64,000 nucleotides of DNA from a virus (lineage: Duplodnaviria > Caudoviricetes), in IMG/VR virus record IMGVR_UViG_3300027845_000349, positions 1 to 64,000 of that record. One strand, 5' to 3'. The first letter of the stretch is position 1, and each line of letters begins with the position of its first letter. A program made the position numbers and the translations under genes. This document shows, one piece after another, positions 180-63,744 of this stretch. The notes beneath the pieces were generated by a model that made no database searches, had not been told where the DNA came from, and was given only the letters and a program-made list of their open reading frames with translations.

Positions 180-875
180 ATGAATATATTGACTGAAGAC
201 AATATTCCAAAGATAATAAGGTTTATATCTGAACTAGGAGGATGTCTTGTGGATTGGTTAGGTGACGTAAATGAAATGGTAAAACTTGTCGGAGTCCCTG
301 GAGTTGTTGTCGTTTTGTGGGCGGTAATGCCGTTAGTATTAACAGCTCTTCTTATTACGATAATAAGTATAGGGGCGAAGCAATCCCGGGATAATAATCA
401 GGCATTTACAAAACAGATGGAAAGCTTAACAATAGCTATAAGTAATTTATCAGATAAAGTTTTAGATCCTCCAATGAATCTTGCAGATTCTCTTGAGTAT
501 TTTTATCTTGTAATGAATGAGCATGTTGGTAAAAAATTGTCATATCTTGGAGAAATTCTTCGTAAAAATTCAATAAATAATAGAAAATCAAAAATCCAGA
601 AAAATATAGAGAATGAATTTAGATCAATAACTACAAAAGAAGCTAATAAGTTAAGCCGTAAAAAGTCGGTTTGTGGTGATATGGGGAAAGTCCTTCAAGA
701 AAGTATTGATTGGAAACCATTTCTTAATGAAGTTTATTCTGCATTTTTTGTGGAAAGAAAAGAAAATTCCAATAAAGATTTTGATTATTTTAAAATTCAA
801 GATGTAAAATCAATAATGTATGGAACGGTTGATAAGATAGCAAAAAAATTAGAAGATGACGGAGTTCGTAATTAA
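180..875 (+). CDS. Hypothetical membrane protein (N-terminal hydrophobic segment followed by a soluble domain)
   Basis: 231-aa ORF with hydrophobic stretch LVGVPGVVVVLWAVMPLVLTALLITIISIG; no family recognised. Confidence 0.55.
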   Translation: MNILTEDNIPKIIRFISELGGCLVDWLGDVNEMVKLVGVPGVVVVLWAVMPLVLTALLITIISIGAKQSRDNNQAFTKQMESLTIAISNLSDKVLDPPMNLADSLEYFYLVMNEHVGKKLSYLGEILRKNSINNRKSKIQKNIENEFRSITTKEANKLSRKKSVCGDMGKVLQESIDWKPFLNEVYSAFFVERKENSNKDFDYFKIQDVKSIMYGTVDKIAKKLEDDGVRN

Positions 876-876
876 C

Positions 877-905
877 TTGATAATAAAGAGTTAAAATAGT
901 AAAAT
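877..905 (+). promoter_or_regulatory. sigma70-like promoter TTGATA-N17-TAAAAT
   Basis: Hexamers at 877-882 and 900-905, upstream of the ORF at 924 (SD GAGGTG). Confidence 0.6.
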
Positions 906-923
906 CACCTAAAGAGGTGAAAA

Positions 924-3437
924 ATGTTAAATCTTCCTGTTTTTAAAATAACCCCACTTATAGAATCATATTACATAGAACAAATCGGGAATAAGAAAAT
1001 TTCTATAAAAACCTATCAGAAAACAAAAAAATCAATTAAAAGATTAAAAAAGAGTTCTTCAGGTCCATTGAAGTGGGTATTTATACAGAATGAATCAGGG
1101 GAAACACCTGTACTGTTAAAAAAATCAGGGAATGATAATATTTTTGTAACCGGATCTCTTCGATTAAAAAAAGCCAAAACAGAAAAAGACCTTGAGTACT
1201 GGAAGAAAAAACTTCTGGATGTACTGAGAGTAGAAAAGTCTCTTGAAGATATTCTATTCCCGGGAATCCTTTCAAAAGCTCTTCCCGATGATGTTCAAAG
1301 CCTTTTAATTAAAGCAAGAGGATATCCTGTAGGAACTAAACGGACATGGAGTGGAAAAGAATATAAAAAAGTTGCTGGTGGTGCTTCGGGAAAAGGTAAA
1401 TGGGTAAGAACCTACACTGAGACCGAATCTCGTGGAGCGAAACAGGCCGTAAGAAATGTCCAGAGAAAAATAATGGATGCATCTTCTATGGAAGAGCTCC
1501 TTGAAATAGTCAAACAAAATTCTTCAAGATTCCAGGATAAAGATGGGAAAATGCTTCCTATAGTCAAAGAGTTTATTACAGCAGCTAGAGGAACAGAAGA
1601 AGGTAAGAAAGAAAAACCTAAAGTAAAAGAGACTGTTAAACCTGATGTAAAGGAATCACAATTAGAAAAAAAGCGTCAATTTGCTGATGGAACATTTGAA
1701 ATTGAGTCAGAAGAAGCAGAAGAATTAGTTGATTCTCTTAATAAAGATCTTAAAAGTGATAAAGTTGAGTTTTCTCTATATGAAGAGGATGGATTTACTA
1801 CATTTTATGCTGAAATAGAACGGGAAAACTTTACTGAAAATATTGTTATAGACCCATATAATAGGGATGAAATAAAAGATCTCGCTGGAAGAGGTCCAGA
1901 TAAAAAGCAAAGAAAAAGAAGAGCATCAACTCAAACAATTCCAGAGAATGAAGGAACAAAAGAAGTTGAAAAAATAGAAGAGACTACAGAAGATATAAAA
2001 GTAATGGAGCCAGTTAAAAAAGAACCTATTAAAGATCCTGAAAAAATAAATGAATCTATCGAAAAAGCTTCACCAGATAACAGAAATGAAGTTCAAGCAG
2101 ATCTATTCGGAGCTTCGGGAGAAGATCCACCAGAGGGAAAGTATAATTTTGAACCTAAGTCTGTAAAATTAGCAGGACAGACCGTCCTTGATTACAGGCC
2201 TGTAATCCCCAAGAAAATAGAAGTTCCTACAGAGGCAAATATACTTGATAGAGAATTCCCTTCATGGATGCCTCCTGTTACAAATAGAGAAATGGCACAA
2301 GTTTCTTTTCTTCCGACTTCAGTTTCTGTTGGTGAAAATGAGCTTTTAGTAAATATTGGTGAAACGCCATATGTTATGAGCATGGATGTATATGCTGGTA
2401 TGGTTCAGTATCATGTAAATTACTATAAGTCATTTGAGAAAAAAGCAATGAGTTTGAGAATTGAAGAGGGGGTTAAAGAAGCTAGAGAGAAAATAAAAGA
2501 ATTTGAAGGCCAAGAAGGTCGTTTAGCAGAAATGGAAGTAAGATATTACGGAAGAATAATTGAAGCTTATGAGTCTAAGGATAAAAAAACTTTAAATCGA
2601 TTATACAAAAAAAGACGGCCAAAAAGATTAATGCCTACAAATAAAATGTCATATCCTCAGCTTAACACCTATAATAAAATCTCCGGTAATAGAACTGAGT
2701 CTTGGAAAATGTATAATAAATTCCGAGAGGATCTAGCTTACAAAATGGCAGATATGAAGTTTCAATATGAAGATAATCTCAACTCATATTCTAAAGGGAA
2801 AGAGACTTCTTATGGAAATAGTGGAACTAAAGACACCTTACTTAAGGATTATGGTGTTAAGATAAAACGACAGAATGGCGATGAGATAACTCCAGAAGAA
2901 ACAAATCAGTTAAAAAAGGCTCTTGATGATATGTATTCAGTCTATGGAGATAGAAGTGATATGAGTCGTAAGTTTGGTCTTAAAATTTCTCATTCTGGAG
3001 AAAAAAGACAACATGCAAGTAAGTATATTGGTCTTTACTATCCTGCTTACAAAGCTATTGGGGTAGGATTCACATCTCAAGAACAGGGAGGCCTAACTCT
3101 ATCTCATGAATATTCTCATTTCTTTGATAATTATCTTGGTAAAGATGAATACCACTATTCATCAGATCAAACAGGATCCATCTCAAATGATATAGCCAAA
3201 AAATTTAGATCTAATATGACAAAAGGATCTAAGATAGATGGGTATTGGGGAAGAACATGTGAGTGCTTCGCTAGAGCTTTTGAACAATATTATGATATTG
3301 AAACAGGAACAAATAGTTTTGATGGAGAAAAACAGTATATGAGTGCTGAACAATACAACAAAGAAATAAAACCTCTTGTAGAGAAATTTTTTAAAGAAAA
3401 TGACAGTCTACTTAAATCTATAGACATTATATGGTAA
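924..3437 (+). CDS. Large polyvalent-type virion/internal head protein with C-terminal LPD1-like zincin domain
   Basis: 837 aa. C-terminal HEYSH (HExxH) and GYWGRTCECFARAFEQY resemble LPD1. Basic motifs GYPVGTKRTW..GKEYKK and GRGPDKKQRKRR. Located in the head module. Confidence 0.6.
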   Translation: MLNLPVFKITPLIESYYIEQIGNKKISIKTYQKTKKSIKRLKKSSSGPLKWVFIQNESGETPVLLKKSGNDNIFVTGSLRLKKAKTEKDLEYWKKKLLDVLRVEKSLEDILFPGILSKALPDDVQSLLIKARGYPVGTKRTWSGKEYKKVAGGASGKGKWVRTYTETESRGAKQAVRNVQRKIMDASSMEELLEIVKQNSSRFQDKDGKMLPIVKEFITAARGTEEGKKEKPKVKETVKPDVKESQLEKKRQFADGTFEIESEEAEELVDSLNKDLKSDKVEFSLYEEDGFTTFYAEIERENFTENIVIDPYNRDEIKDLAGRGPDKKQRKRRASTQTIPENEGTKEVEKIEETTEDIKVMEPVKKEPIKDPEKINESIEKASPDNRNEVQADLFGASGEDPPEGKYNFEPKSVKLAGQTVLDYRPVIPKKIEVPTEANILDREFPSWMPPVTNREMAQVSFLPTSVSVGENELLVNIGETPYVMSMDVYAGMVQYHVNYYKSFEKKAMSLRIEEGVKEAREKIKEFEGQEGRLAEMEVRYYGRIIEAYESKDKKTLNRLYKKRRPKRLMPTNKMSYPQLNTYNKISGNRTESWKMYNKFREDLAYKMADMKFQYEDNLNSYSKGKETSYGNSGTKDTLLKDYGVKIKRQNGDEITPEETNQLKKALDDMYSVYGDRSDMSRKFGLKISHSGEKRQHASKYIGLYYPAYKAIGVGFTSQEQGGLTLSHEYSHFFDNYLGKDEYHYSSDQTGSISNDIAKKFRSNMTKGSKIDGYWGRTCECFARAFEQYYDIETGTNSFDGEKQYMSAEQYNKEIKPLVEKFFKENDSLLKSIDIIW

Positions 3438-3452
3438 TTAATTTAATTCCCC

Positions 3453-3481
3453 TTGACACGTTATCTAAACAGGTATATATT
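3453..3481 (+). promoter_or_regulatory. sigma70-like promoter TTGACA-N17-TATATT
   Basis: Consensus -35 with 17-nt spacer; drives the small operon containing def. Confidence 0.8.
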
Positions 3482-3504
3482 TAGGTATATTCAAGGGGGA
3501 ATAT

Positions 3505-3579
3505 ATGAAAAATAAAAAGAAAGACAAGAAATTCCGTAAGAACCGAAAAGCAACAAGATCTTTAAGGGGGAAGTCATGA
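3505..3579 (+). CDS. Small basic peptide MKNKKKDKKFRKNRKATRSLRGKS (24 aa)
   Basis: SD AGGGGG, ATG at 3505, and a TGA overlapping the next ATG (ATGA); below the ORF-track cutoff. Confidence 0.5.
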   Translation: MKNKKKDKKFRKNRKATRSLRGKS

Positions 3580-3791
3580 TAAAAACTTCAATGGCAAAAA
3601 TCTGGGAAAAGAAAATAGACAAAGTTTCTTATATGATAAGTTTGGTTCAGGAAGTTATTAATGGAACTCCAGAAGATAATATAGAATTATTATCTGGCCT
3701 TCTTGAATATAGATCAGATCTAAAGGAAATAAACAAAAAGTTTATAACAGCATATATAAGTGTAGTAAATTATGAATCTAGTATCACCTGA
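3576..3791 (+). CDS. Hypothetical protein
   Basis: 71-aa ORF, translationally coupled on both sides. Confidence 0.55.
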   Translation: MIKTSMAKIWEKKIDKVSYMISLVQEVINGTPEDNIELLSGLLEYRSDLKEINKKFITAYISVVNYESSIT

Positions 3792-4209
3792 TAAAGTAGA
3801 AGGCTGTAAGTGCAAAGAAGTAAATCTTGATAATATAGATTCTATTCTTGAAATAGCCTTAGAAATGGCTGAGATTATGATAACAAAAAGAGGTATTGGG
3901 CTTGCAGCTCCTCAAGTTGGGATCTATAAAAGATTTTTTGTTATGAAAAATTTCAGGGGAAACGGATATGTAACAATAATAAATCCTGAGATTATAAAAG
4001 TTTCAGATAAAATAGGTACTTTTAATGAGGGATGTTTAACTTATCCCTGGAATTATAGGGTTAATGTAAAACGACCTAAACAGATAAAAGCTTCATGGAT
4101 ATCTGATAACGGGGATTGGATATCAATGAAATTAACCGGTAGAGAATCACAATGTTTTCTTCATGAATTTGACCATCTGGATGGAATCTGTATTAGAAAT
4201 AAGGATTAG
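3772..4209 (+). CDS. def: Peptide deformylase
   Basis: All three PDF motifs are present: GIGLAAPQVG, EGCLT, HEFDHLDG. Confidence 0.95.
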   Translation: MNLVSPDKVEGCKCKEVNLDNIDSILEIALEMAEIMITKRGIGLAAPQVGIYKRFFVMKNFRGNGYVTIINPEIIKVSDKIGTFNEGCLTYPWNYRVNVKRPKQIKASWISDNGDWISMKLTGRESQCFLHEFDHLDGICIRNKD

Positions 4210-60787: not shown

Positions 60788-61418
60788 ATGGAAGAGGATA
60801 AACTAATTTTTAATTGTCCTGAATGTGGGAAAGAATATTCTACAAGTATAGATTCAACCGGTGATATGTGGAGATGTATTTGTGGGCAAAGATTTTCATG
60901 GAGAAAATTCTCTATTCCAAAGGAATCTTATATTAGATTGACTTCTGAACAGATTGAAGAAATTCATTATAGATATCTTACTGATAAGAGTCTACAGATA
61001 TTTAATTCAAGAATTGTAATGATAATGTCAATGGCTATACCATCATATAGGAAAAATAAAACCGGTAATCTTGAAGTTATATATTCTACTGAAGATATGC
61101 GAGAAATTAAAGGAATAGAGAAATTAAGAGATGATTATATTAAAGATCATTATCCAGAATTAATATATATTGGAGAAATAGATGCCATTAACAAATGATA
61201 ATTCAAGGATACATTTCTGTAGATATTGTGGGAAAACTTTAGAAACAAAAAGAGTGGTAATTGGATTCTTTACAAAGACAGTTGAAAAAGCATGCAATTG
61301 CTCTGATTTTGTATTAAATATAGAGATAACAAAGAATATAGACTCCTTGGAAAAGTCAAGACCGAAAGATAAATTTGAAATACGAGAATCTTATTCAATA
61401 GAAGAGATAAAGAATTAA
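60788..61418 (+). other. Two small Cys-containing hypothetical CDSs (60788-61198, 61182-61418)
   Basis: ORF track. Confidence 0.55.
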
Positions 61419-61486
61419 TTTGACATATTAAAATAAATGAGATAATCTTTATTTTTTATATTCTATTTATTATTTACAATTTTCCT

Positions 61487-61516
61487 AAAAGCCCTGGTAT
61501 AAATCAGGGCTTTTTT
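61487..61516 (+). terminator. Intrinsic (possibly bidirectional) terminator isolating the tRNA operon
   Basis: AAAAGCCCTGGT-ATAA-ATCAGGGCTTTT followed by more Ts. Confidence 0.85.
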
Positions 61517-61517
61517 A

Positions 61518-61546
61518 TTGACATAATTATAATATTAAAATAAGGT
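61518..61546 (+). promoter_or_regulatory. Promoter for the leader-tRNA operon (TTGACA-N17-TAAGGT)
   Basis: Perfect -35 at 61518-61523. The -10 assignment is less certain, and TAAGGT could instead serve as the SD of the leader. Confidence 0.6.
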
Positions 61547-61553
61547 AATAAAT

Positions 61554-61607
61554 ATGAACAAGAAAAATCTATACAGTTTATATCTCTCGTTGGTAATGCC
61601 TGAGTGA
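61554..61607 (+). CDS. Attenuator leader peptide MNKKNLYSLYLSLVMPE
   Basis: Eight consecutive Leu/Tyr/Ser codons at 61569-61592; tandem stops TGA TAG; overlaps the antiterminator strand. Confidence 0.8.
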   Translation: MNKKNLYSLYLSLVMPE

Positions 61608-61658
61608 TAGAACTATTTTCTTTATTATTCAGGCCATCCATTGTGGGTGGTTTTTTTT
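61581..61658 (+). promoter_or_regulatory. Transcription attenuator (1:2, 2:3 antiterminator, 3:4 terminator)
   Basis: 61581-61588/61602-61609; 61598-61611/61621-61634 (14 bp); 61633-61640/61644-61651 followed by a T8 run. Confidence 0.8.
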
Positions 61659-61660
61659 AT

Positions 61661-61734
61661 GCTCCGGTAGCCCAACTGGTAGAGGCATGGGACTTAAAAT
61701 CCTTGTGTTGACAGTTCGACTCTGTCTCGGAGTA
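61661..61734 (+). tRNA. tRNA-Leu(TAA), short variable loop
   Basis: Cloverleaf; loop CT-TAA-AA; TTCGACT T-loop; A73; no encoded CCA. Confidence 0.88.
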
Positions 61735-61740
61735 ATTCAA

Positions 61741-61814
61741 GCCTTGGTGGCCTAATTGGTATAGGCGCTGGTCTTAGGAACCAGACTTTGAGAGTTCGAG
61801 TCTCTCCCGAGGTA
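61741..61814 (+). tRNA. tRNA-Leu(TAG), short variable loop
   Basis: CTGGT-CTTAGGA-ACCAG anticodon arm; TTCGAGT T-loop; A73. Confidence 0.9.
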
Positions 61815-61820
61815 ATACAT

Positions 61821-61905
61821 AGAAGAGTATGTTAGCGGCTATACACGCAGTCTTGAAAACTGTTTACACTTAACGGTGTCGTGGGTTCGAGTCCCACCTC
61901 TTCTG
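61821..61905 (+). tRNA. tRNA-Ser(TGA)
   Basis: AGAAGAG/CTCTTCT acceptor stem; loop CT-TGA-AA; long V-arm; G73. Confidence 0.92.
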
Positions 61906-61909
61906 TTAT

Positions 61910-61993
61910 GGACAAATGCGATAATCGGTATTCGGCTTGATTGCTAATCAAGTGATCTGAAAGGGTTTATAGGTTCGAGTCCTATTTTGTCCG
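61910..61993 (+). tRNA. tRNA-Ser(GCT)
   Basis: GGACAAA/TTTGTCC acceptor stem; CTTGA-TTGCTAA-TCAAG; long V-arm; G73. Confidence 0.92.
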
Positions 61994-61997
61994 ACAT

Positions 61998-62081
61998 GGG
62001 TAGGTATGCAAACTGGTGAAGCAAACGGTCTGTAAAACCGTGACGTAAGATACATTGTGAGTTCGAATCTCACCTTACCCA
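61998..62081 (+). tRNA. tRNA-Tyr(GTA)
   Basis: GGGTAGG/CTTACCC acceptor stem; ACGGT-CTGTAAA-ACCGT; long V-region; A73. Confidence 0.92.
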
Positions 62082-62089
62082 CTTCTTCA

Positions 62090-62114
62090 AGTTCTAAATT
62101 CTGGGGCTTTTTTT
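62090..62114 (+). terminator. Probable terminator closing the tRNA operon
   Basis: AGTTCTA/TGGGGCT (G-U-rich stem) followed by a T-run. Confidence 0.55.
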
Positions 62115-62142
62115 ATTTGTTAAATATGTATATAATACTATC

Positions 62143-63744
62143 ATGTGGACAAATGAAGAAAAGAAAGTTATAGCTACAACTGCATTAACAAACATGAGGC
62201 CGGGAGCTCATTTAGATTTCTGGCAGGAATGGTATCTATGTCAGAATGTTCGTTTCGGTCATTTGTTGAAATCCAGAAGAATCGGATTCAGCTTTATAAA
62301 CTCAATTAAGATGGTATCGGAAGCTATTTATCCAGGAATAAATAGATACCAAAAAGTAGTACTCTCGTATTCTTTAAATGAGGCCATGGGCAAAATAAAA
62401 GACGCTAGAGAAGCACTTATGAATCTTCCAGAAGGATGGACAAAGGAATTAAAAACAGACTCAAAGACAGCTCTAGAATTTTGGGATGTTGGTAAAAAAA
62501 GCGTTTCGCAAATTATTTCGATACCTGCTAAGTCTGCAAGGGGATTTGGAACAGATAACGATTACGGAGGAGCTATTGCTGATGAAGCAGCCGAAATAAA
62601 AGAGTTTCGTCCCATATATACATCTATTCTTCCTACTCTATCACGAGGTGGTACATTCTGGATGGGTGGAACTCCTAAAGGGAAAGATGATTTATTTTAT
62701 GATGTTCACGCCAATAAGGAAAAATATAAATCGTATACAAGAATAGAAATACCGTGGTGGCAAAGTTCTGCGAATTGCACTGACATAAAATCAGCTATAA
62801 GATATGCAAAAGAAATGGCTACTCATGATAGAGTTGAAAAATATGGCAATGAGATATTACATGAAATATTCAATAATATGGGACTTAAGCAATTCCAGCA
62901 GGAGTACGAATTAACATTCCAGGATGAAAATGATTCGTTCATTACATTAGAAATGATTATGTCCTGTACCCCTCAAGAAGTAGAACAATACGAATATAAA
63001 AATATATCAGAAATTCTAAAGGGTGTCATTATCCCTGAAATATGCACAGGATTTGATAAAGACGGTCAACCAGTATTTGAATCGGTAACAGCTCCAGCTT
63101 ATGATCCGGAAATACATGGAGCTCTTTACGCCGGTTGGGATATGGGAAGAACAAAAGATGCTTCTATATTTACACTTATCGGAGTAAAAGACGGTAAAAA
63201 ACATGTGTGGATGTCATATGAATTAAAAAACACTCCATTTGATGAACAGAAAGCATTTGCTGAACTGGCTTTATCGGTTCTACCTATCCAGCAATTTTTA
63301 ATTGATAAAAACGGATTAGGTATGGATTTTGCGGAATGGGCAGAAAAGAAATTTCCTACAGTTGCCCATGGTGTACAGTTTTCCAATGAAACTAAAGAAA
63401 CTATGGCTAATAAAGTATACTTAGGATTTGAAAGATTTGAATATGTTCTCCCTATGAATAGAAAACTTCATGCAGACATTCATTGTATAAGAAAAACATT
63501 AACAGCAATGAAGTTTAATAAATATGATGGATCCACAAAAGATTCTCATGCTGACCGGTTCTGGAGTCTTGCCCTGGCCACAATAGCTATAACTGATGGA
63601 GATGCAAATGTTTCAAGATTTTATCAAGGGTACAGAAGAAATAAGGATATTCAGATATCTTCAACTAAGAAAATTAAAAGTTCAGGAAATGCAGATTTAG
63701 ACCGGATAAGAAGAATGGCTAGAAGGGGTAAAAGGCGTGGTTAA
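62143..63744 (+). CDS. terL: Terminase large subunit
   Basis: Walker A variant KSRRIGFS, Walker B AIADEAA, nuclease GWDMGRTKD, C-terminal HADRFWSLALA. Confidence 0.92.
   Translation: MWTNEEKKVIATTALTNMRPGAHLDFWQEWYLCQNVRFGHLLKSRRIGFSFINSIKMVSEAIYPGINRYQKVVLSYSLNEAMGKIKDAREALMNLPEGWTKELKTDSKTALEFWDVGKKSVSQIISIPAKSARGFGTDNDYGGAIADEAAEIKEFRPIYTSILPTLSRGGTFWMGGTPKGKDDLFYDVHANKEKYKSYTRIEIPWWQSSANCTDIKSAIRYAKEMATHDRVEKYGNEILHEIFNNMGLKQFQQEYELTFQDENDSFITLEMIMSCTPQEVEQYEYKNISEILKGVIIPEICTGFDKDGQPVFESVTAPAYDPEIHGALYAGWDMGRTKDASIFTLIGVKDGKKHVWMSYELKNTPFDEQKAFAELALSVLPIQQFLIDKNGLGMDFAEWAEKKFPTVAHGVQFSNETKETMANKVYLGFERFEYVLPMNRKLHADIHCIRKTLTAMKFNKYDGSTKDSHADRFWSLALATIAITDGDANVSRFYQGYRRNKDIQISSTKKIKSSGNADLDRIRRMARRGKRRG

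Follow-up and report, generated by a model that had tools for sequence, protein, structure and literature searches.

What sets the supply of the tRNAs that a phage carries for itself? Phage tRNA genes are usually viewed as constitutive codon-usage helpers or as spares against tRNA-cleaving defences. The question is raised here by five tRNA genes, annotated for leucine, serine and tyrosine, that lie behind a very short open reading frame (ORF) and an intrinsic terminator. The locus is near the end of the window, by which we mean the whole stretch of DNA analysed, i.e. the first 64 kb of the 87.8-kb contig (33% GC) of an uncultured phage (IMG/VR record IMGVR_UViG_3300027845_000349). Judging from the sequence, we lean towards reading the region as a leader-peptide (ribosome-mediated) transcription attenuator that would gate a self-contained mobile tRNA cassette. 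The element spans ~140 nucleotides (nt), and a second natural version of it, with a rebuilt antiterminator, occurs in a related phage contig, L012. Comparisons between carriers refer to these two phages (n=2), with an additional relic in L023. The central features of the window are as follows.

61554-61610 (tandem stops included), plus strand: leader ORF of 17 codons, MNKKNLYSLYLSLVMPE, with ATG at 61554, TGA at 61605-07 and TAG at 61608-10
61569-61592, plus strand: codon run CTA TAC AGT TTA TAT CTC TCG TTG (LYSLYLSL), codons 6-13 of the leader ORF
61575-61614, plus strand: hairpin 1:2 (pause-type), 61575-61589/61601-61614 with a 3-bp tip, -11.0 kcal/mol
61598-61611/61621-61634, plus strand: hairpin 2:3 (putative antiterminator), 14 bp including 3 G.U pairs, -16.8 kcal/mol, equalled by 0 of 200 shuffles
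61631-61653 (stem) with T8 to 61658, plus strand: hairpin 3:4 (putative attenuator terminator), -11.5 kcal/mol
61660-62082, plus strand: five tRNA genes with anticodons UAA, UAG, UGA, GCU and GUA (ARAGORN, Rfam)

Codon run and downstream tRNA genes

The initial annotation had reported a 17-codon ORF with precisely these eight codons in positions 6-13, and this proved exact in the sequence; the five tRNA genes that it had listed, with anticodons TAA, TAG, TGA, GCT and GTA, were found by ARAGORN and Rfam alike. No other tRNA genes are present in the 87.8-kb genome, and each of the five has a cognate codon in the LYSLYLSL run. Among the 1044 ATG-initiated ORFs of 10-35 codons in the genome, a single one, the leader ORF, contains a run of at least seven Leu, Ser or Tyr (L/S/Y) residues, and runs of at least eight were counted four times in 175,600 six-frame codon positions. 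When amino-acid triples were ranked by run length, L/S/Y came first of 1140 in both the window and the L012 leader. Coverage of all five tRNAs was reached by 6% of random sets of eight L/S/Y codons drawn with the phage's own codon usage. Three codons of the run are rare in this phage, namely CTC (3% of Leu), TTG (9% of Leu) and TCG (2% of Ser). The claim that seven of the eight codons are readable by the five tRNAs under standard wobble stands, but 69% would be expected anyway, and the enrichment at the level of codons, beyond the match of amino acids, is weak.

It should be added that another L/S/Y run, of ten residues (SLYSLLSLYL), lies on the minus strand at 61315-61344, ~230 nt from the leader, in a frame antisense to the gene at 61182-61418; L/S/Y runs therefore do arise by accident in this AT-rich genome. 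That unrelated run is one of several points in favour of a reading that we nevertheless regard as improbable, namely that the codon match is a coincidence within a mobile tRNA cassette (a phage "moron"). The tRNAs would then be supplied by constitutive partial read-through, the terminators would be insertion leftovers beside existing ones, and the ORF and helices would be accidents of AT-rich sequence. Repeated terminator tails, GGGCTTTTTT(T)AT, border the cassette, relatives are devoid of it and the spacer-shuffle controls given below are marginal. Moreover, the locus came out of a very large scan, in which some chance matches are expected, and our low estimate allows for the size of that scan. 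Coincidence would have to account for the meeting of several rare features (the run, the coverage of five tRNAs, the placement of the stop, three significant hairpins and the distance from promoter to ATG) and for their persistence in L012 despite a fully diverged promoter spacer and a rebuilt antiterminator.

The UAA and UAG tRNAs measure 74-76 nt and have a short variable arm, and the UGA, GCU and GUA tRNAs measure 85-87 nt. Both "Leu" tRNA genes are located at 61661-61814 in the window and at 2635-2788 in L012, and positions 1504-1576 of L127 are listed with them. From the anticodon arm to the T arm, tRNA(UAA) is near-identical to Spirochaetota tRNA-Phe(GAA) except for G34>U, as if it derived from a tRNA-Phe whose anticodon had changed; its "Leu" label is hence putative. 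Unrelated phages also have short-armed tRNA(UAA) genes that share this anticodon arm. The resemblance to tRNA-Phe, together with related phage contigs binned in metagenome-assembled genomes of Spirochaetales, points to a spirochaete as the host. The five tRNAs could between them decode all Leu, Ser and Tyr codons, provided that U34 reads any of the four bases.

Overlapping hairpins and the predicted switch

Three hairpins, 1:2, 2:3 and 3:4, overlap between the leader ORF and the tRNA genes. The 1:2 helix exists and is longer than the 61581-61588/61602-61609 pairing proposed at first, extending over 61575-61589/61601-61614 with its 3-bp tip. The distal half of the codon run makes up its 5' strand, its 3' strand lies over the stop codons, and a U-rich stretch follows on the 3' side. 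In both phages the regulatory codons lie partly within this hairpin, which competes with 2:3. The latter is the minimum-energy form of the free window leader and excludes both 1:2 and the bottom 3-4 pairs of the terminator. A 14-bp helix is indeed present at 61598-61611/61621-61634, but it does not take the whole 5' strand of the terminator, as had been claimed, and shares only 61631-61634 with it.

The attenuator terminator at 61631-61653 plus T8 was borne out by sequence and folding, and in the window a single base separates its T8 from tRNA 1. The terminator abuts the first tRNA gene in both phages (it ends 1-2 nt before it) and leaves no room for a promoter, so synthesis of the tRNAs needs read-through. 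Furthermore, the 2:3 helix of each phage begins at or just after the stop codon and extends into the 5' strand of the terminator.

For folding in the presence of a ribosome, the transcript was cut at the terminator loop and the ribosome footprint was masked. With a ribosome stalled in the run, pairing of the terminator 5' strand was 0.87 for L012 and 0.58 for the window; placing the ribosome at the stop lowered it to 0.27 and 0.17, respectively. The stall state left nearly the whole terminator 5' strand paired in L012, and in the window positions 61631-34, joined by 61638-40 for early stalls. In both phages, then, the folds behave as the initial annotation had anticipated, with a stall sequestering the terminator 5' strand and a ribosome at the stop freeing it. 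The helix energies of both phages resemble those of the Escherichia coli trp leader.

The elements, their conservation, their pairing potentials and their geometry are observed features of the two genomes; from them we infer the start of transcription, translation of the ORF, pausing and a response of read-through to tRNA supply. In the attenuator reading, the TTGACA promoter described below would start transcription on the ATG or beside it; RNA polymerase would linger at hairpin 1:2 and the U-rich tail of that hairpin, and meanwhile a ribosome would translate the 17-codon leader. Fast reading of the eight Leu/Ser/Tyr codons would bring the ribosome to the stops, where it would cover the 5' strand of the antiterminator; with this strand covered, the terminator hairpin would form and transcription would end one base before the first tRNA. 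Under slow decoding, the ribosome would stall in the run, 1:2 would be broken and region 2 would pair with region 3. Formation of 2:3 would weaken or block the terminator, and the five tRNAs would be transcribed. The net effect would be a demand-driven, self-limiting supply of the tRNAs that read the codons of the run. As to purpose, feedback that limits the phage's own supply of tRNAs is no less likely than the sensing of a defence.

The second carrier and the borders of the cassette

Relatives were retrieved by way of the terminase gene (8 close and 72 distant IMG/VR loci, 29 GTDB loci and 10 look-ups), which yielded one carrier, L012, and one relic, L023. L012 is a JGI contig of 86.5 kb with a terminase 70% identical to that of the window phage, and it has the same cassette with the same five tRNAs, the two "Leu" genes being in swapped order. 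The leader ORF and its correspondence of codons to anticodons are kept in this homologous cluster. The L012 leader, MKRTNLSSLYLSLVLPER with its stop, differs by 11 substitutions in 57 nt (19% divergence), with no indel and no new stop. Its run reads LSSLYLSL instead of LYSLYLSL, owing to the changes CTA>TTA, TAC>TCC (Tyr to Ser) and TTA>CTA; the first two stay within L/S/Y, the chance of which for those two codons is roughly 0.1.

Hairpin 1:2 has the same shape in L012 (-15.7 kcal/mol), and 16 of its 16 pairs hold in both phages, one of them by a compensatory change in which U61578-A61611 became C-G. Over hairpin 1:2 and the terminator together, 25 of 25 pairs hold in both, with one compensatory and five one-sided, pairing-preserving changes. 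The L012 terminator consists of a 10-bp stem and T7 (-16.1 kcal/mol), in which four one-sided changes keep pairing through G.U, and the U-rich spacer before the terminator is likewise present. The L012 version of the 2:3 helix, AGGACUGUUUUU/AGAAGCCGUCCU at 2580-91/2603-14, has an energy of -9.8 kcal/mol, and 0 of 200 shuffles were as good.

The two leader peptides also allow a reading in which the ORF encodes a functional small hydrophobic peptide, or is the relic of a signal-peptide N-terminus, on an mRNA that ends at the terminator. MNKK or MKRT followed by LxSLYLSLV does resemble, on reading the sequence, a signal peptide in its basic start and hydrophobic core. We regard this as very improbable: 17-18 residues are too short for a membrane span, Tyr-rich cores are atypical, and the hairpins over the coding sequence and the terminator abutting the tRNAs would be left unexplained.

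The outer parts of the cassette are made up of the following features.

61487-61516, plus strand: upstream intrinsic terminator, 12-bp stem and T6, -16.8 kcal/mol, with 0 of 200 shuffles as good
61518-61546, plus strand: putative sigma-70-type promoter, -35 TTGACA at 61518-23, 17-nt spacer, -10-like TAAGGT at 61541-46
62089-62114, plus strand: right border of the cassette, a weak hairpin (62089-62109 with T7) and GGGGCTTTTTTTAT

TTGACA at 61518-61523 follows directly after the upstream terminator. The window -10 element, TAAGGT, matches the consensus in 3 of 6 positions only and was not flagged by the promoter scan tool; the L012 promoter, TTGACA-18-TATATT, matches in 11 of 12. The distance from TTGACA to ATG is exactly 30 nt in both phages, with 11 of the 30 intervening bases identical by our count. 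Going by this promoter geometry, transcription would start on the ATG or within 2 nt of it in both phages, and a leaderless mRNA would agree with the 30-nt distance being maintained although the spacer has diverged. At other promoters of the window phage, the 5' leaders are 15-20 nt long and contain AAGGAG-like sites.

The upstream terminator is as strong as had been stated; it closes the short transcription unit before it and marks the cassette's left border. Homologues of it precede the terminase gene in cassette-free relatives. The right border fared differently: the terminator proposed at ~62090-62114 is only a weak hairpin with many G.U pairs, -5.5 kcal/mol and a z of -0.9, no better than shuffled sequence. 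There, GGGGCTTTTTTTAT repeats the tail of the left terminator, and the tail at the right border also precedes the terminase promoter in cassette-free relatives. Direct repeats of the terminator tail bracket the cassette (in the window at 61505-61520 and 62101-62116) and offer a possible route, by recombination, for its gain or loss. L010 and L148, the phages nearest to that of the window, have the conserved upstream terminator joined directly to the terminase promoter; the nearest relatives of L012, L147 and L011, are also without the cassette, and of the terminase relatives at 53-80% identity, most are without tRNAs at the site. As the unit is missing altogether from the phages closest to each carrier, leader and tRNAs are gained or lost as a whole. 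For the wider proposal, a portable tRNA-on-demand module that moves between phages as one cassette (promoter, sensor, terminator and tRNAs) and whose leaderless mini-gene, built from codons for its five tRNAs, autoregulates their transcription by attenuation, we consider the chances evenly balanced.

Just upstream, at 61420-61516, lies a second mini-unit consisting of TTGACA-17-TAATCT, ~65 nt of AT-rich RNA and the strong terminator, and it is a candidate small RNA by its sequence. A weak Rfam match of this mini-unit to PsrR1 falls below the threshold (26 bits; gathering score, 42). The same unit, from promoter to terminator, precedes the terminase gene in relatives without the tRNA cassette, L148 (68-170), L010 and L002, and in L012 (2389-2484), which carries the cassette.

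In L012, a gene for an HNH homing endonuclease (PHROG, E 2e-38) is situated between cassette and terminase gene, in the region 3055-3963, and a GC-rich, potentially structured stretch (acggggataggg...tttccccgt) lies between promoter and HNH gene at 3095-3160. L017, with a terminase 61% identical, has GroEL- and GroES-like genes (Cpn60, Cpn10) in the region 545-3300 and, upstream of the terminase gene, a gene-free stretch of 670 nt with two odd tRNA-like calls.

Counter-evidence and known attenuators

The main rival, which we consider unlikely, is that the leader acts as RNA only, either as a ~105-nt small RNA or as a structured leader responsive to a protein or RNA factor, with an incidental ORF. 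The terminator would be leaky or overridden by a phage factor, and read-through would supply the tRNAs. A promoter, ~105 nt and a strong terminator are the anatomy of a small-RNA gene, and the similar promoter-to-terminator mini-unit upstream is conserved in relatives. The substitutions between the two leaders obey pairing rules, and the conservation of TATATCTCTCGTTGGTA extends to synonymous sites, which points to constraint at the level of RNA. An RNA-only leader thus accounts for the nucleotide-level conservation. It does not account for the codon match, i.e. the sole long L/S/Y run of 1044 small ORFs standing before Leu/Ser/Tyr tRNAs, nor for the survival of ATG, frame and stop through 19% divergence, nor for the start of both antiterminators at the stop codon. 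The leader also has no meaningful Rfam score: a cmscan of 61000-62400 with E up to 1 returned, besides the five tRNAs, three sub-threshold matches, of which only anti-hemB overlaps the leader (19.5 bits; gathering score, 49.5). The T-box and amino-acid leader families of Rfam had no match in the same interval, and a reading of the leader as a T-box was rejected on this ground.

The codon match, the L012 leader, the terminator abutting tRNA 1 and the masked folds speak for the attenuator; the 14-bp antiterminator, which is not conserved and removes only the bottom 3-4 pairs of the terminator, speaks against it, and so do the following points. In the window, 2:3 overlaps the terminator at 61631-61634 only (3-4 nt), and a 6-bp hairpin with its U tract can still form beside it. 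In the equilibrium fold of the full-length L012 RNA, the terminator is formed in every ribosome state, so the switch model depends on co-transcriptional kinetics. Shuffles of the spacer match or exceed the stall-minus-stop contrast in 9-10% of trials for each phage. In place of the 14-bp helix, L012 has a non-homologous pairing of the same geometry. With two independent carriers, covariation is thin, and TTA>CTA, being half of the compensatory pair in hairpin 1:2 and explained by pairing alone, is no independent evidence for coding. A Shine-Dalgarno sequence common to both leaders was not found, which also suits an RNA-only leader; given this and a predicted start site at the AUG, leaderless translation of the ORF must be assumed. 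The attenuator likewise assumes coupling of transcription and translation in the presumed spirochaete host.

Two further points of the same kind come from other phages. L023, with a terminase 53% identical, keeps only a decayed relic of the leader (150-430), in which TATATCTCTCATTTGTATT and the U-rich GATAG block have been absorbed into the end of an unrelated 83-codon ORF, without the 3' strand of 1:2 and without the terminator. A single tRNA-Ser(UGA) of different sequence follows the relic, and the 83-codon ORF had no relatives among the loci compared. Codon-matched leaders were also absent from the two unrelated phage tRNA arrays screened, those of L008 and of Bacillus phage TsarBomba. In TsarBomba (L157), a hairpin CTCCTTC...GAAGGAG with T6 at ~2955-2993 stands directly before a sub-block of tRNA-Tyr/Ile/Leu/Leu genes, so that a terminator-like element abuts a tRNA block in a cultured phage, with no convincing codon-matched ORF.

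Further carriers were sought in several collections. Pattern scans of IMG/VR with a tRNA-Ser probe, a leader probe, the junction of T-run and tRNA, and the interval from stop motif to terminator gave no match, and IMG/VR scans with the Leu-Leu anticodon arms and the Phe-like tRNA(UAA) arm returned only unrelated phages with no comparable upstream leader. A metagenome pattern scan found two unrelated tRNA arrays only. BLAST of the cassette against 401 Spirochaetota genomes hit host tRNAs only, and against a phage collection tRNAs only; a covariance model of the leader run on 151 Spirochaetota genomes and 27 loci found ordinary terminators only.

The initial annotation knew of no described attenuator of a phage tRNA operon, and full-text literature searching found no leader-peptide control of tRNA genes. 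The mechanism is probably of a known type in a new setting, leader-peptide control being not yet described for tRNA genes. Its closest parallels in form are the multivalent attenuators of enterobacteria, in which the ilvGMEDA and ilvBN leaders sense Ile/Leu/Val and thrL senses Thr/Ile. Shared with these are a short ORF with contiguous codons for several amino acids, overlapping hairpins 1:2, 2:3 and 3:4 with an intrinsic terminator, and a stop placed so that the finished ribosome would block the antiterminator. Unlike them, the phage element would have tRNAs as its targets and not biosynthetic enzymes, so that the signal would feed back on decoding capacity; it is phage-borne, with no sequence or Rfam homology found, its start is likely leaderless, and the overlap of antiterminator and terminator in the window is minimal.

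In E. coli, the attenuator of pheST (phenylalanyl-tRNA synthetase) works through the Phe-rich leader peptide PheM and, like the element proposed here, places a gene of the translation apparatus under the control of ribosome speed on cognate codons. It differs in having a synthetase as its target, in sensing one amino acid and in being chromosomal. T-box riboswitches are similar in that an attenuator with alternative antiterminator and terminator reports the balance of charged and uncharged tRNA; they differ in binding tRNA directly and without translation, in their length of 200-300 nt and in their conserved Stem I and T-box motifs. Finally, rnTrpL of Sinorhizobium meliloti is reportedly a small RNA derived from an attenuator. 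The terminated phage leader of ~105 nt would likewise be a stable-looking RNA with a terminator hairpin, for which a second role in trans is possible.

If the attenuator reading is true, phages would gauge decoding speed directly and dose their tRNAs accordingly. Textbook attenuation would thereby extend from amino-acid operons to the decoding machinery, and the element would be the first case of an attenuator that senses its own output.

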